Virus record (IMG/VR): IMGVR_UViG_2690315994_000013
Direction: 5' to 3' (one strand)
DNA from: a virus
Lineage: Duplodnaviria > Heunggongvirae > Uroviricota > Caudoviricetes
Length of the DNA: 7,292 bases
Position 1 is the stretch's first letter. Every line of letters starts with the position of its first letter. A program made the translations under genes and the position numbers. Below are positions 246 through 4,739 of this stretch, piece by piece. The notes beneath the pieces are model-generated. The model was given only the letters and a program-made list of their open reading frames with translations, had not been told where the DNA came from and ran no database searches.

Positions 246-1067
246 CTATCGCGTTACCCTCTTTAACTGCCGCTCCGCCCATGCCTCTTCAATGTCAAAC
301 CGAACCACCAACGTATCGTAAAAGCGTTTCACTGATTTTTTCCACGTATCAAGCGTGATAGCACTCGTCACTTTGCATATGGCATTAAATGCCTCCGTTG
401 ATGGTAGTCTTTCACAGCCACGACCACCACAACGCTGGCAGTCTCTGATAACAGGCATACCACGTTTTACCGACTCTTCACGATGAATGGCGACACCACG
501 CCCACGGCAATCCTTACAGGCGGTGGAAACCTCACCCTTTCCGCCACACTCCGGACAGGCAACTTTTACCACCTCCCTGACTTTTTTCCATTCTTCCCAG
601 TAAGACGGATACACACCTTTCGTACACTTTGCCCATACCGGCGGCTTACCATCCGGATACTGGATCTTGTTTGTAAAAACCTCGCTTTCAATAAATTTTT
701 TTCCGTGACAGCAGGAGCACTGTTTTTTGCTCGCCGCGCTGCGGGCATAATCTTCAAACGCATACGAAGCCATAATACGCATCACTGCCGGTTTTATTTC
801 TGCCGGGAGTTTTCTTAACGCCGCCACGCGATCACACCGACTGAGTGCATATTCTGTCAGCAATTCTGTTGCCCGCTCTCTGTCATTCATACTAATGCCC
901 ATTTTCCCAAGGAACGCAGAAAACCCCATCTCAGCCCGATTCTGTGTCATGCCCTGCGCGGCCATCACATCAGTGATACTCAGCGCATCTTTCGACGTTG
1001 AGGCCGATGCATCAGTCAGGCCGGGGGATTTTGGGGAGTAGTATTTCGGTAAATCTTCCAGTTTCAT
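246..1067 (-). CDS. Q: Late-gene antitermination protein Q (lambda-Q family, 273 aa, with an extra Cys-rich segment)
   Basis: N-terminal SPKSP...TDVMAAQGM and C-terminal ...YDTLVV...VTR match my recollection of lambda Q (SPKSP...TDVMAAMGM...YDALVV...AVTR). Multiple CxxC pairs suggest zinc binding. The ATG (1067..1065) overlaps the rusA stop (ATGA). Position is immediately upstream of the pR'-like promoter. Confidence 0.85.
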   Translation of the reverse strand: MKLEDLPKYYSPKSPGLTDASASTSKDALSITDVMAAQGMTQNRAEMGFSAFLGKMGISMNDRERATELLTEYALSRCDRVAALRKLPAEIKPAVMRIMASYAFEDYARSAASKKQCSCCHGKKFIESEVFTNKIQYPDGKPPVWAKCTKGVYPSYWEEWKKVREVVKVACPECGGKGEVSTACKDCRGRGVAIHREESVKRGMPVIRDCQRCGGRGCERLPSTEAFNAICKVTSAITLDTWKKSVKRFYDTLVVRFDIEEAWAERQLKRVTR

Positions 1068-2498: not shown

Positions 2499-2777
2499 TT
2501 ACCTCCAGATGCGTTGCTGGAATGTGCGGGACGGACGCGGTGGGCGTTCAGAGTAAGGAAGCCTGACGGAGATTATCCAGTGACGATAATCGAGGCTGAG
2601 GGCTTTCTTAATCTCGTATCCGTGTCTGCGGTAGCACTGAATTAGCCATTCAGCTTGTTCTTCAGTACATGGGGGATGCTGGTACCAATCAGATTTGAAT
2701 GTGCGGGAACGCCGCCCGTGCCTGCTGGCAAAGACAGCTGAATTATCAGAATTGTGTGATTTGGTATTGTGCGCCAT
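2499..2777 (-). CDS. Hypothetical protein (92 aa from ATG at 2777; the ORF track extends to a TTG at 2858)
   Basis: Open frame translationally coupled to the DUF968 gene. The longer ORF-track start (TTG at 2858) lies inside the upstream terminator T-tract, so the internal ATG (MAHNTKSHN...) is preferred. No recognisable motif; it occupies the position of rem in K-12 Qin, but similarity is unverified. Confidence 0.4.
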   Translation of the reverse strand: MAHNTKSHNSDNSAVFASRHGRRSRTFKSDWYQHPPCTEEQAEWLIQCYRRHGYEIKKALSLDYRHWIISVRLPYSERPPRPSRTFQQRIWR

Positions 2778-2850
2778 CGTCTTTCTCTGCTGGCGCAGCA
2801 GGTGCCAGTTGTTCAGGCTGACGTGCGAATTGTAAACCTGAATGCCAAGA

Positions 2851-2878
2851 AAAAACAAAACCCGCCGAAGCGGGTTTT
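2851..2878 (-). terminator. Rho-independent terminator (copy 1 of a duplicated hairpin)
   Basis: Minus strand: aaaacccgc-ttcg-gcgggtttt followed by gttttttc. The core cccgccgaagcggg recurs at 4209..4222. Confidence 0.6.
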
Positions 2879-2892
2879 GTCAGTACTGAATA

Positions 2893-3042
2893 TCAAGCTG
2901 CGTGCTTGCCACTACAACTGCAAAGTGGGATCGGGAAAGGCTTCCCTTTTTTCGCGTGGCGCATTACACCATCTACACACACAGAGTAGCGAAAAATGAT
3001 CTCACATGGACAGCCACATTTGCGACAGGTACCCATTGCCAT
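2893..3042 (-). CDS. Small Cys-rich protein (49 aa from ATG 3042; 60 aa if GTG 3075), possible zinc ribbon
   Basis: MAMGTCRKCGCPCEIIFRYSVCVDGVMRHAKKGKPFPIPLCSCSGKHAA has 8 Cys including CxxC-type spacing. It lies between the peptidase terminator and terminator copy 1. SD is weak, so coding status is uncertain. Confidence 0.3.
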   Translation of the reverse strand: MAMGTCRKCGCPCEIIFRYSVCVDGVMRHAKKGKPFPIPLCSCSGKHAA

Positions 3043-3185
3043 GATTTCGTTTTCCCTGCTCACCTGTGAATCCACACAGGTTGCACTTTGTTGGGAGAAC
3101 CACTACACTTCGCTTGTCTACAAAAAGTGTTGTGATTGGATTATCTCCATACACTACGGAATGTGTTAGCGCACTTTCCGTCCCT

Positions 3186-3211
3186 AAAAGCCCTGTTAGC
3201 GCAGGGCTTTT
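3186..3211 (-). terminator. Possible weak terminator/hairpin at the end of the HTH-peptidase operon
   Basis: Minus strand: aaaagccctg-cgctaa-cagggctttt, overlapping the peptidase stop codon. Only about 4 U after the GC stem, so termination efficiency is uncertain. Confidence 0.35.
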
Positions 3212-3686
3212 ACATATAAAAATCGAACGACATCTGTTGTGTTCTCACGCCAATTGTTTCCAGTACGATATCCGCAAATGTATCTGCCTGCCATTCTGCA
3301 TCCTCAATACGAGTAGGTTCTTTAACTGAAAAGTGTAAAACTGCTTTGTGTCCAAGAAGCAAATGACCTAGCTCGTGGAAGATAACAGCAAGTGCATGCT
3401 CTTCCCCAAGGCAAGCATTCACATATATTTTATTGGGAACCGTAATTGTTAGAGAAGCGGGGTCACAATGTCCGATAGTTAGATCATACGTCAGAGCCTC
3501 CCACTCTTTGTCGGTCCTGACGTCAAGAGTAACCCCATAAATTGACAGGCTTTCAAAGAACATATCATAACGCTTTCTTTTGCGCTTTGAGGCTGTAAGA
3601 CCAATAGCATTACAGAAGTTTATAGCTCTGTAGGCTATTTCTTCTTCTTGCATCGGTGACACCCTGTTACCTCTCATTTGATACAT
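3210..3686 (-). CDS. ImmA/IrrE-family (M78-like, DUF955-type) zinc metallopeptidase, 158 aa
   Basis: HExxH motif (FHELGHLLLGH) with a downstream acidic residue pattern typical of ImmA/IrrE peptidases. The start ATG 3686 is 2 nt after the HTH gene stop, with a GAGGGG SD inside the HTH gene 3' end. A hand count on about 100 nt gave roughly 41% G+C versus roughly 57% in a sample of the DUF968 gene. Confidence 0.75.
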   Translation of the reverse strand: MYQMRGNRVSPMQEEEIAYRAINFCNAIGLTASKRKRKRYDMFFESLSIYGVTLDVRTDKEWEALTYDLTIGHCDPASLTITVPNKIYVNACLGEEHALAVIFHELGHLLLGHKAVLHFSVKEPTRIEDAEWQADTFADIVLETIGVRTQQMSFDFYM

Positions 3687-3688
3687 AA

Positions 3689-4048
3689 TTACCCCTCATT
3701 GTTATTAATCTTTTGCAATAAATCTGCAAAACTCTTTAGCTGTTCCGGCGTAAACTGCGACTTAGCGAATCCCGCTACAAGCATTTTCTGTTGCTGAGAC
3801 AAACCGTTTACTGGAACTGAGTCATTCGCAACTGCCGCTAACTCCTGTAACCCTTCAATTTCTACACCTTTGGCCTTGAAGTAAGAATCAATCTTCTTAA
3901 CCCACTTCAGAGGTATTTTTTTGCTACCAGTTTCTAAACCGCTAAGAAACGCTGGCGTAGTGCCCAGTTCTTGAGACATAGTCAGAAGAGTACTGTCAGT
4001 ATCGATCCTCGCTTTTCTAACGGCCTTACCGAATTCAGTGAGTGCCAT
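3689..4048 (-). CDS. XRE/Cro-CI-type helix-turn-helix transcriptional regulator, 119 aa
   Basis: N-terminal segment (FGKAVRKARIDTDSTLLTMSQELGTTPAFLSGLETGSKKIP) fits the XRE HTH pattern. GAGGA SD 7 nt upstream of the ATG. First gene of a two-gene operon with the peptidase. Confidence 0.8.
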   Translation of the reverse strand: MALTEFGKAVRKARIDTDSTLLTMSQELGTTPAFLSGLETGSKKIPLKWVKKIDSYFKAKGVEIEGLQELAAVANDSVPVNGLSQQQKMLVAGFAKSQFTPEQLKSFADLLQKINNNEG

Positions 4049-4075
4049 GATTTTATCCTCAATTTGTTGATTTAG

Positions 4076-4098
4076 CAGACTTGCCTAACGCAAGCCTG
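4076..4098 (-). promoter_or_regulatory. Imperfect inverted repeat between promoter and RBS of the HTH gene (candidate operator)
   Basis: cagActtgc-ctaac-gcaagCctg: 9-bp arms with one mismatch and a 5-bp spacer, placed where an autoregulatory operator would be expected. Confidence 0.3.
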
Positions 4099-4124
4099 AT
4101 GGGCGCTTAAATTCTAATTCCTAA

Positions 4125-4152
4125 AATTTACCATATACGAAAGCAAAGTAAA
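4125..4152 (-). promoter_or_regulatory. Putative sigma70 promoter of the HTH-peptidase operon
   Basis: Minus strand: TTTACT (-35-like), 16-nt spacer, TGgTAAATT (extended -10) in an AT-rich intergenic region about 80 nt upstream of the HTH start. Confidence 0.4.
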
Positions 4153-4190
4153 CCTTTTTAGTTAAAAAAATCTCCTTTAAGGGAATTTTT

Positions 4191-4224
4191 TTCACAAAAA
4201 GAACAAACCCCGCCGAAGCGGGTT
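4191..4224 (-). terminator. Rho-independent terminator downstream of hokD (copy 2 of the duplicated hairpin)
   Basis: Minus strand: aacccgc-ttcg-gcggggtt followed by tgttcttttt; same cccgccgaagcggg core as at 2861..2874. Confidence 0.55.
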
Positions 4225-4292
4225 AAGTGCGGGTGCGTTGAGGATGCCTGACACATCAGAGGTGGCGAGGGATTTCTCCCCCGCCAGGTCTC

Positions 4293-4448
4293 TTACTCCT
4301 CAGGTTCGTAAGCTGTGAAGACAGCGACCTCCGTCTGGCCGGTTCGGATTCGTACCTCGCAGAGGTCTTTCCTCGTTACCAGTGCCGTCACAATGACGGT
4401 TAAACAGATGACGATCAGGGCGATTAGCATCGCCTTTTGCTGCTTCAT
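4293..4448 (-). CDS. hokD: Hok/Gef-family membrane toxin, HokD (RelF)-like, 51 aa
   Basis: MKQQKAMLIALIVICLTVIVTALVTRKDLCEVRIRTGQTEVAVFTAYEPEE matches my recollection of E. coli K-12 HokD/RelF essentially residue for residue. AAGGAG SD upstream of ATG 4448. The ORF-track 70-aa version begins at an in-frame upstream ATG (4505) with no obvious SD. Confidence 0.85.
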   Translation of the reverse strand: MKQQKAMLIALIVICLTVIVTALVTRKDLCEVRIRTGQTEVAVFTAYEPEE

Positions 4449-4739
4449 AGCCTGCTTCTCCTTGCCTTTCGGCACGTAAGAGGCTAACCTACGTGTGTAG
4501 AGCATAGATATGGCCTCAGATTAATGTTAAGCGTCTTGCCGGACGCGTAATGTTAACTGGGGCTTTTCTCTATCTGCCTTTTGGTGTTCATGCCTGAGAC
4601 AGATAGCCTCAAGCACCCGCTGCAATTCTACTTAACTCTCCTTTTCCCGCAAACCGTTTTTATCCCCAGCGGCAAATCGAATACACCACCAGCGCCACCG
4701 CCATCGCAATTCCTACCGTTGTTAATGCTTCAGGCCAGG

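Follow-up and report, generated by a model that had tools for sequence, protein, structure and literature searches.

Introduction

Type I toxin–antitoxin loci, as generally defined (PMC3919570, PMC2887945), pair a gene for a small, hydrophobic, membrane-directed toxin, usually of fewer than 60 amino acids (aa), with a small RNA that is encoded on the opposite strand and base-pairs with the toxin mRNA. Here, we describe a small open reading frame (ORF) and its leader, which lie downstream of genes for an XRE-type helix-turn-helix (HTH) protein and an ImmA/IrrE-type M78 metallopeptidase in a 7,292-nucleotide (nt) piece of a lambdoid Escherichia coli prophage (IMG/VR record IMGVR_UViG_2690315994_000013; the whole piece is referred to below as the window). 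By analogy, their architecture appears closest to that of the type I loci in which the small RNA overlaps the leader of the toxin gene, namely tisB/istR-1, zorO/orzO, dinQ/agrB, and shoB/ohsC. In this comparison, the shared traits are an ORF of fewer than 60 aa (49 aa here), a prophage location, tandem duplication of the unit, a long structured 5′ leader with a ribosome-binding site predicted to be occluded, and a predicted opposite-strand small-RNA gene that lies over the leader rather than the coding region. The module differs from these loci in that its protein is basic and soluble and has no hydrophobic helix, in that it has no recognized sense promoter of its own and seems to depend on read-through from upstream, and in that it matches no known type I protein or RNA family in Rfam, Pfam, NCBIfam, or PHROGs.

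Two further type I systems invite comparison. The hok/sok locus, which is present in the same window, likewise has an antisense-controlled small ORF and a folded mRNA in the same prophage region, but Hok is a membrane toxin and sok is recognized by Rfam, whereas the module matches neither. In the rac prophage of E. coli, the RalR/RalA pair places a small, soluble, nucleic-acid-directed protein, and thus a non-membrane toxin, under antisense control; we detect no sequence relation between this pair and the module, and the overlap of RalA is with the coding region, not with the leader.

The genes upstream of the small ORF resemble a different kind of system. HTH/M78 pairs are damage-triggered derepression switches, in which the peptidase cleaves the HTH repressor after DNA damage (10.1101/2022.04.27.489752). 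As in ImmR/ImmA of ICEBs1 and phage phi105, CapH/CapP of cyclic-oligonucleotide-based antiphage signaling systems (CBASS), and DdrO/IrrE of Deinococcus, the window has an XRE-type HTH gene adjoining an M78 (COG2856) peptidase gene with an HExxH motif, and in all of these the pair sits in a mobile element with a regulated output gene nearby, here a candidate one. The CapP and IrrE peptidases carry a GAF domain (10.1101/2022.04.27.489752), whereas the window peptidase is a bare domain of 158 aa with no C-terminal GAF domain. A second difference from ImmR/ImmA-type switches is that the candidate output is a co-directional 49-aa protein behind a putative RNA gate rather than a divergent multi-gene operon. 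By analogy only, we infer that signal-dependent cleavage of the repressor may free a cargo in this cassette.

Results

Conservation of the small ORF as a protein-coding gene

The initial annotation had described an ORF of 49–60 aa at 2893–3075, proposed it as possible cargo of the HTH/peptidase switch, and allowed that it might be non-coding. The ORF is indeed present on the minus strand, with 60 aa when read from the GTG at 3075 and 49 aa from the ATG at 3042. The sole conserved start is the ATG, and several homologues have an in-frame stop 1–4 codons upstream of it; because the upstream frame is thus closed, we assign the gene to 2893–3042 only. ORF size alone is within chance expectation, with 82 ORFs of at least 30 aa in the window, and the significance of this one therefore lies in its conservation rather than its length. 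Among 35 distinct 147-nt homologous coding sequences, the median ratio of nonsynonymous to synonymous substitution rates (dN/dS) is 0.096, and 48 of the 49 third codon positions are variable versus 29–30 of the 49 first and second positions. Of 55 loci that were found through the leader, and not through the ORF, 54 contain an intact small ORF; what looked like exceptions were contig ends or a script artefact. Even E. coli copies that are only ~70% identical in DNA remain in frame, for example, MATTTCTKCGNTCEVIFRYTVCVDGVVRHAKKGKPFPIPLCNCSEKKAA and MAMKICKECGKPCEIIFRYSVCINGVMRYARKGHPFPIPVCGCSRT.

The same picture is obtained at greater distance. A translated search of one genome per species yields 20 loci encoding proteins of 44–49 aa with 39–96% identity, in Lelliottia, Kluyvera, Kosakonia, Citrobacter, Providencia, Pantoea, Atlantibacter, Enterobacter, Rheinheimera, Histophilus, Haemophilus, and Actinobacillus, and a homologue is also found in one Chitinophagaceae metagenome-assembled genome. 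The frame and five cysteines (C6, C9, C13, C41, and C43) are kept in more than 30 loci of several orders. The check on conservation and dN/dS that had been proposed at the outset thus comes out in favor of the ORF: judged by its substitution pattern and by a frame conserved down to 39% identity, it is a coding gene under purifying selection, and the doubt about its coding status can be dropped.

The protein has no match in Pfam, NCBIfam, or PHROGs, and a PADLOC scan gave nothing usable. In a collection of 5.8 billion proteins, there are nearly no named members, and an exhaustive hidden Markov model search of 1.84 billion cluster representatives returns ~30 full-length relatives, all of which are stand-alone; no informative domain fusion was found in this search, in which the longer matches look like over-extended ORF calls. 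Our literature searches found no description of the trio of HTH, ImmA, and small-ORF genes or of the leader RNA. By these comparisons, the ORF is a real gene of an undescribed family. The expectation that annotation would miss it was borne out: in the identical RefSeq locus NZ_CP147059, the annotation pipeline PGAP places no gene between the peptidase gene and a 92-aa gene, and in NZ_OX460329, the one other genome checked, it calls, in place of the minus-strand gene, a 76-aa plus-strand ORF (WP_001743644.1; window 2769–2999) that is probably spurious. Three other genomes list a "hypothetical protein" beneath the match. The 76-aa ORF begins in the 5′ end of the neighboring gene, traverses the terminator hairpin, and spans the cassette boundary.

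Cysteines and predicted fold of the small protein

The 49 residues include seven cysteines, one fewer than originally counted, in the arrangement C6-x2-C9-x-C11-x-C13 ... C22 ... C41-x-C43, so the CxxC-like spacing reported for them stands. M1, C6, C9, C13, F17, G25, C41, and C43 are invariant in 14 diverse aligned members, and the invariant cysteines of the cysteine-bearing clade are therefore five of the seven. The protein is basic (isoelectric point 9.2) and lacks a membrane segment; its Kyte–Doolittle maximum in a 15-residue window is 1.2, compared with 3.3 for HokD. AlphaFold2, run with a 31-sequence alignment, returns a confident all-beta model (predicted local distance difference test score of 82).

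With C6-x2-C9-G10 and C41-x-C43 invariant or nearly so in the cysteine clade, the CxxCG ... CxC arrangement is that of a zinc ribbon, and zinc binding is predicted from it. The earlier suggestion of a zinc ribbon is thus supported by the cysteine pattern and the all-beta model, but it does not extend to the family as a whole, since distant homologues lack the knuckle cysteines. These homologues keep a central hairpin motif, approximately h-x-[FVY]-R-x(5-8)-G-x2-[IV]-...-G-K-x-F-x-I, as can be seen by comparing the cysteine-free VVVYTPYITRNGKRIYRKNGGMFRFEV with the cysteine-bearing IYTPYIRKGGKVIYRKNGGKFRIP. Because distant homologues have lost the cysteines, zinc does not appear to be at the core of the family's function, and the zinc site looks like a clamp on a beta-hairpin core rather than the functional center. 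Sequence searches of the PDB with two profiles found only generic CxxCG knuckles (adenylate kinase lid, RpoM). We also considered an arm-type DNA-binding beta-sheet domain, for which the single match (Arm-DNA-bind_4, E 0.013) is to one cysteine-free homologue and is too weak to be used.

A covarying leader RNA

The ~170 nt between the ImmA stop codon and the small-ORF ATG form a leader that is conserved above many coding regions and is predicted to fold into four hairpins, H1–H4 (Table 1). In an 18-sequence alignment, 95.3% of the cells are paired, compared with 33–54% when the partners are slid by 1–3 columns, and compensatory changes occur in 17 of 31 pairs; the observed measures were reached by none of 500 shuffles. 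The short inverted repeat noted upstream of the ORF (CCTGTG at 3063–3068 and CACAGG at 3075–3080) is H4, with compensatory changes in five of its six pairs. A covariance model of the leader gives the window a score of 151.8 bits and recovers 55 viral loci. Rfam has nothing in 3040–3215, nor in 2979–4442 on either strand, at E values up to 1; weak istR, RsmY, and isrK matches (~20 bits, far under the gathering scores) sit on the downstream terminator.

The G-U content of the helices indicates on which strand they form. On the sense strand, H3 and H4 together have ~30 G-U cells versus one A-C cell, while H1 and H2 are balanced. Because of this bias toward the ORF strand, we take H3 and H4 to be mRNA structures; the pattern fits a leader in which H3 and H4 fold in the mRNA only and H1 and H2 could fold in the RNAs of both strands. 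H1 probably terminates the antisense RNA and would also act on the sense transcript, as a leaky terminator. The placement of the ORF between an operon terminator and a cassette terminator agrees with what we see, the two elements being the H1 hairpin and the strong terminator downstream of the gene.

An upstream region of its own, in the sense of a promoter for the small ORF, is not what we find there: a position-weight scan yields no convincing sense promoter within the leader, which instead is structured and carries a predicted promoter on the opposite strand. The TTGACA of the H3 loop was considered as a −35 element and rejected, as it has no suitably spaced −10 element and is not itself conserved. 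A put- or nut-like antitermination element was likewise set aside because no boxA was found and the contexts are inconsistent; the HK022 sequence was not compared. The H1 stem resembles lambda boxB.

The sequence UCUCC, which forms one side of the closing helix of H3, is complementary to the ribosome-binding site of the ORF in every leader inspected. In thermodynamic folding, it is predicted to pair with the Shine–Dalgarno (SD) region with a probability of ~0.8–1.0 in 11 of 18 leaders, including that of the window.

A predicted antisense promoter and small RNA

The best σ70-like site of the leader, in scans with a position weight matrix (PWM), is antisense to the ORF, with its −10 element ending 67–74 nt before the ATG, in 22 of 24 loci. 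In eight of eight further loci, which carry cysteine-free ORFs and in which leaders and ORFs are too diverged for alignment, a site is found at the same antisense position, giving a total of 30 of 32. Its form varies between lineages: TTGCGA-17-TAAACT in enteric loci; TGGACA-18-TAGAAT in Pasteurellaceae, whose leaders do not align with those of enteric loci; and TGGACA-17/18-TAGAAT, TAAACT, or TAGACT in the cysteine-free loci. The argument for an antisense promoter therefore lies in this position, which is kept across lineages, rather than in the score within the window.

An antisense transcript from this site would end at H1, beyond which the antisense side has 5.6 of 8 T compared with 3.2 of 8 on the sense side. 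In locus L079, an independent scanner calls both an antisense promoter and an antisense terminator. The resulting RNA is predicted to begin with an unpaired segment that is complementary to the pseudo-SD arm of H3, followed by H2′ and a terminator hairpin H1′ with a U-tail. With its position-conserved promoter-like site and the terminator-like H1, this putative RNA might be a counterpart of the opposite-strand small RNA of type I loci.

Identical loops of H1 and H2

H1 and H2 share their apical 10 nt, TGTTAGCGCA on the plus strand, at 3164–3173 and 3194–3203. An apical motif of 6–10 nt is common to both hairpins in 34 of 38 distinct leaders, while 11 motif types are found between loci, for example, GCGCTAAC versus GTTGACGC; two of the types are exact reverse complements of each other (GTTGACGC versus GCGTCAAC), and a one-base variant is present in H1 and H2 together. 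By our own reading, a YUNR (U-turn) tetranucleotide is present on the sense strand in nine of the 11 types. Neither the small protein nor the upstream operon predicts the type of loop: the protein of locus L017 is 96% identical to that of the window and the loops differ, which speaks against loops that track the protein. Nor do the loops appear to be operators of the cassette HTH protein, since the motif is absent 5′ of the HTH gene and the same loop type occurs behind unrelated operons. Our guess is that H1 and H2 are kissing loops that set sense–antisense specificity and so prevent cross-talk between co-resident modules.

Linkage to HTH/ImmA pairs and other contexts of the unit

Starting from the small ORF, at least 18 of ~27 loci have homologues of the window HTH and ImmA genes directly upstream, and in loci of this kind the distance from the ImmA stop codon to the small-ORF ATG is always 165–200 nt. 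The search is unbiased when it sets out from ImmA, and here each of the 23 close relatives in IMG/VR has the ORF downstream, with the leader beginning 1–2 nt past the stop codon. In a sample of 80 ImmA relatives from IMG/VR reaching down to 36% identity, a cysteine-family ORF lies downstream in 57 of 57 that are at least 50% identical and in 13 of 22 below that level. Of the nine remaining distant loci, we inspected eight; each has a leader of comparable length and, after it, a relative of the ORF with few or no cysteines. The trio also stays together across orders in genome-derived loci. This linkage confirms a strong tie of the small ORF to the HTH/peptidase pair.

The unit of leader and small ORF also occurs without ImmA, behind other operons, and we therefore regard the ImmA switch as one driver among several. 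In locus L003 and in three other genera, it follows HicAB and a 146-aa protein, beside an integrase. In a second context, it ends a three-gene operon encoding ~253 aa, 200 aa (with an XRE-like HTH segment), and 300 aa, for which PADLOC gives no match for the 253-aa and 200-aa proteins and a weak PbeC match (E 0.0035) for the 300-aa protein; this operon may be an unknown accessory or defense cassette. In Stx1 phages, the cI-DUF3024-177-aa immunity operon ends in the leader, which lies ~450 nt ahead of gene N and precedes a cysteine-poor ORF of 44 aa (MAHDVNRDDFIYEHDKPVYVRSYCRIRFGELEHVRQHFRSYPSC, WP_000929756.1) with two cysteines and four histidines, which resembles the cysteine-poor variant behind a distant ImmA gene in locus L254. 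Overall, 54 of 55 leaders precede a member of one of two small ORF families. Locus L079 is a stand-alone copy, with no co-oriented gene within 400 nt upstream of the unit, and in Providencia rustigianii (L023 3828–4520) the unit is duplicated in tandem, in the order ImmA, leader, ORF, leader, ORF, terminator, with ORFs ~75% identical and a strong terminator 3′ of the second only.

Some neighborhoods are worth recording. The stand-alone unit of L079 (7118–8161) adjoins a divergently transcribed 347-aa gene that may resemble DUF4238, a phage-hotspot defense candidate. In Klebsiella phage ST846-OXA48phi9.2 (L015 1–3626), the trio lies among a YedK-like SOS-response peptidase gene and umuDC, and in a second Klebsiella phage (L014 3612–3845) it lies near dinI; this neighborhood of damage genes fits a role as a damage-linked switch.

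The cassette and its setting in the prophage

All genes of the window are on the minus strand. In transcription order, the replication/DUF977 block and a complete hokD/sok locus precede the HTH and ImmA genes, and the small ORF is followed by the 92-aa gene, a DUF968 gene, rusA, and a Q-like antiterminator gene. The HTH protein has weak HTH_31/HTH_3 matches and a PADLOC HTH_VI match at 1e-6, while ImmA matches Peptidase_M78 at 24.6 bits (Pfam cut-off 22); the CapP and CapH profiles match the pair only weakly (E 0.0035 and 0.0097, respectively). Together with the small ORF, which is its only non-regulator product, the pair makes up a cassette of 1,348 bp inserted between two copies of a 27-nt direct repeat that are 93% identical. 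O157:H7 prophages have an empty site with a single repeat copy and no cassette, and the cassette therefore looks inserted or exchanged at a terminator. A dyad lies in the 5′ untranslated region, 3′ of the promoter-like site of the HTH–ImmA operon, and comparable sites are present 5′ of the HTH gene in most of 12 other loci scanned. A tRNA or tmRNA was also considered, and a search found none.

Three side observations concern this region. With hokD/sok directly upstream of the cassette, two small ORFs under antisense control, predicted in the case of the module, are neighbors. A stretch of 11 nt (TGCCATGATTT, or AAATCATGGCA when read on the coding strand) recurs without change at 3037–3047 and 4043–4053, where it covers the start codon of the small ORF and that of the HTH gene, respectively; it may be due to chance. 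The Q-like antiterminator (246–1067, minus strand) has a DnaJ-type CXXCXGXG zinc-finger region N-terminal to its Antiterm domain, with a Pfam E value of 4.5e-6 that is under the family cut-off.

Table 1. Features of the module, its cassette, and related loci. Positions refer to the window unless a locus is given.
Feature	Position	Strand	Basis or remark
Small protein gene, 49 aa plus stop, MAMGTCRKCGCPCEIIFRYSVCVDGVMRHAKKGKPFPIPLCSCSGKHAA	2893..3042	−	ORF list, translation, homologues
Shine–Dalgarno-like AGGGA, 10 nt before the ATG (AGGAG in other leaders)	3053..3057	−	Read from sequence and alignments
Hairpin H4, CCUGUG/CACAGG	3063..3080	−	Helix 5, 5/6 pairs changed on both sides; many G-U on the minus strand
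Predicted σ70-type promoter: TTGCAC (3081–3086), 17 nt, TACACT (3104–3109); start near 3116	3081..3109	+	PWM scans
Long hairpin H3; closing helix GGAG(A/G) (pseudo-SD, 3144–3148) with UCUCC (anti-SD-like, 3094–3098)	3094..3148	−	
Predicted antisense small RNA, ~100 nt	3116..3215	+	From promoter, T-tract, and scanner results
Hairpin H2	3157..3180	−	Helix 2, 6/7 pairs changed on both sides
Hairpin H1, G+C-rich stem flanked by A-run and T-run; overlaps ImmA stop codon	3186..3211		Helix 1
Strong intrinsic terminator of the small-ORF transcript	2854..2881	−	12-pair stem, then T-run
27-nt direct repeat, right copy	2850..2876		Repeat search
27-nt direct repeat, left copy (terminator hairpin 3′ of hokD)	4198..4224		Repeat search
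ImmA/IrrE-type M78 metallopeptidase, 158 aa, HELGH motif, no GAF domain	3210..3686	−	Peptidase_M78
XRE-type HTH protein, 119 aa, presumed cassette repressor	3689..4048	−	ORF and domain matches
Promoter-like site of the HTH–ImmA operon: TTTACT (4147–4152), 16 nt, TAAATT (4125–4130)	4125..4152	−	Promoter scan
hokD and sok RNA, complete type I toxin–antitoxin locus	4293–4618		Rfam sok, 117 bits
Replication/DUF977 genes, upstream-most block in transcription order		−	
Three-gene operon loci	L046 3446–5797; L112 8632–10931; L110 4253–6550		End in the leader and small-ORF unit
Stx1-type leader and 44-aa ORF	L005 3840–4149; L016 3001–3310 (Stx1 phage SH2026Stx1)		

Discussion

The covarying leader and the position-conserved antisense promoter together give the unit the look of an output stage with an RNA gate, one that can be joined to several prophage operons under repressor control. 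The reading that we tentatively favor, and consider quite possible, is that the small protein is a basic effector gated by antisense RNA, the output of the HTH–ImmA cassette, and type I-like though not hydrophobic. It builds on the purifying selection acting on the gene, the covariation of the leader, the linkage to ImmA, and the position of the antisense promoter-like site, all of which are seen in sequence comparisons; the transcripts, the SD switch, the route of induction, and the action of the protein are proposed on this basis.

Under this reading, window positions 2893–3215 would constitute a portable two-strand module. Its minus strand would encode a 49-aa, basic, beta-rich protein, in this lineage clamped by zinc-ribbon-like CxxC ... 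CxC knuckles. As no convincing sense promoter is seen in the leader, the small gene would be transcribed by read-through from the upstream operon, here an autoregulated HTH–ImmA pair. The plus-strand promoter in the leader would give an RNA of ~100 nt, terminated at H1 and complementary over its whole length to the 5′ half of the leader. Two alternative pairings of UCUCC are envisaged: with the upstream GGAG, closing H3, it would form first during transcription and leave the ribosome-binding site free, whereas with the real ribosome-binding site it would block translation. By covering the upstream GGAG, the antisense RNA would free CUCC and lock the blocked state, and it would probably also trigger duplex cleavage. 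The small protein would then be made only when upstream transcription exceeds a threshold set by the antisense RNA, the trigger being cleavage of the HTH repressor by ImmA in response to stress, for example, infection or damage to DNA. As the output of the cassette, it would most likely bind nucleic acid or some cellular machine and either inhibit growth or act as a regulator.

Several observations weigh against this proposal. The antisense site in the window is weak and not significant when taken alone, its score being reached by 93 of 300 shuffles, and a consensus scanner does not call it; moreover, the promoter bases share a conserved RNA arm, such that structure alone could explain their conservation in enteric loci. 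The GGAG/CUCC helix is invariant, and covariation thus cannot separate the two proposed pairings, while masking the half of the leader covered by the antisense RNA changes the predicted accessibility of the SD sequence only slightly. The step from antisense RNA to SD blocking is thus a weakly supported part of the model. A basic, soluble protein is unlike the classical type I toxins, and comparison of the predicted model with PDB structures found no structural neighbor. Finally, the unit is not exclusive to HTH/ImmA, being found 3′ of three other accessory operons as well. The original proposal of a possible cargo for the switch is supported by the linkage from the ImmA side (23 of 23 and 57 of 57) and by the small ORF being the only non-regulator in the cassette, but as an exclusive assignment it fails.

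A wider claim, which we consider somewhat unlikely, is that these loci form an undescribed class of prophage module, in which a soluble beta-hairpin effector, often clamped by zinc, is controlled in the manner of type I systems by a cis-antisense RNA, with specificity set by two identical, rapidly diversifying kissing loops, and serves as the RNA-thresholded output of stress-sensing XRE repressor operons, mostly HTH–ImmA, upon damage or infection, and that they are possibly the first widespread non-membrane type I toxin family in the Gammaproteobacteria.

The same linkage could also mean that the small protein is a dedicated third subunit of the HTH–ImmA switch, such as a co-factor, sensor, or anti-repressor, rather than its output. 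The association is unbroken in ImmA relatives with at least 50% identity, cysteine-free homologues occupy the same place behind distant ones, the 165–200-nt spacing is constant, and the trio persists across orders. A subunit would not be expected behind HicAB and the 146-aa protein, behind the operon that ends in the 300-aa gene, or alone as in L079; it would also have no use for control by an antisense RNA and occlusion of the ribosome-binding site, and the duplication in tandem of just this unit fits an output better. We consider this alternative unlikely.

Less likely still, in our view, is that the functional product is an RNA, either a trans-acting antisense small RNA or the leader itself as the terminator or insulator of a moron, with the small ORF as a secondary passenger. 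The leader is better conserved than the ORF and can precede a very different small ORF family, its H1 and H2 loops are identical and co-vary, and the predicted small RNA has the usual enterobacterial shape, in which a single-stranded 5′ segment is followed by a hairpin and then by a terminator that carries a U-tail. What decides against a passenger is that the ORF is under strong purifying selection (dN/dS ~0.1), is intact after 54 of 55 leaders, and in its cysteine-free variants still encodes homologous proteins, from which it follows that the protein is selected in its own right.

A redox- or zinc-sensing element, for instance, one that donates or buffers zinc to control the neighboring zinc metallopeptidase, is an improbable role for the protein. 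It would suit a 49-residue protein that has seven cysteines, of which five do not vary within the cysteine clade, and whose gene adjoins that of a zinc-dependent M78 peptidase with HELGH, but homologues behind distant ImmA genes have no knuckle cysteines at all and the module also occurs without any peptidase. Finally, we count as refuted the notion of a chance reading frame in a non-coding spacer, since the number of small ORFs in the window, the omission by PGAP, and the lack of a protein family match are outweighed by a frame, length, and key residues kept to 39% identity across orders and by variation, at a dN/dS of ~0.1, that is concentrated at third codon positions.

Returning to the antisense-gated effector, the interesting part of the locus lies just outside the ORF, in the covarying leader and the position-conserved antisense promoter-like site. 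The comparison adds a small-protein family that is absent from Pfam, NCBIfam, and PHROGs, a structured RNA that is absent from Rfam, and a likely antisense small RNA. Loops that are the same within a locus and different between loci could show how specificity is kept up among sense–antisense pairs that share a cell. HTH/M78 pairs are common in prophages and defense islands, and many have no obvious cargo; if the proposal is true, a 49-aa cargo skipped by annotation changes how such "orphan" switches are read, and if the protein is growth-inhibitory, the concept of the type I toxin would widen beyond membrane peptides.

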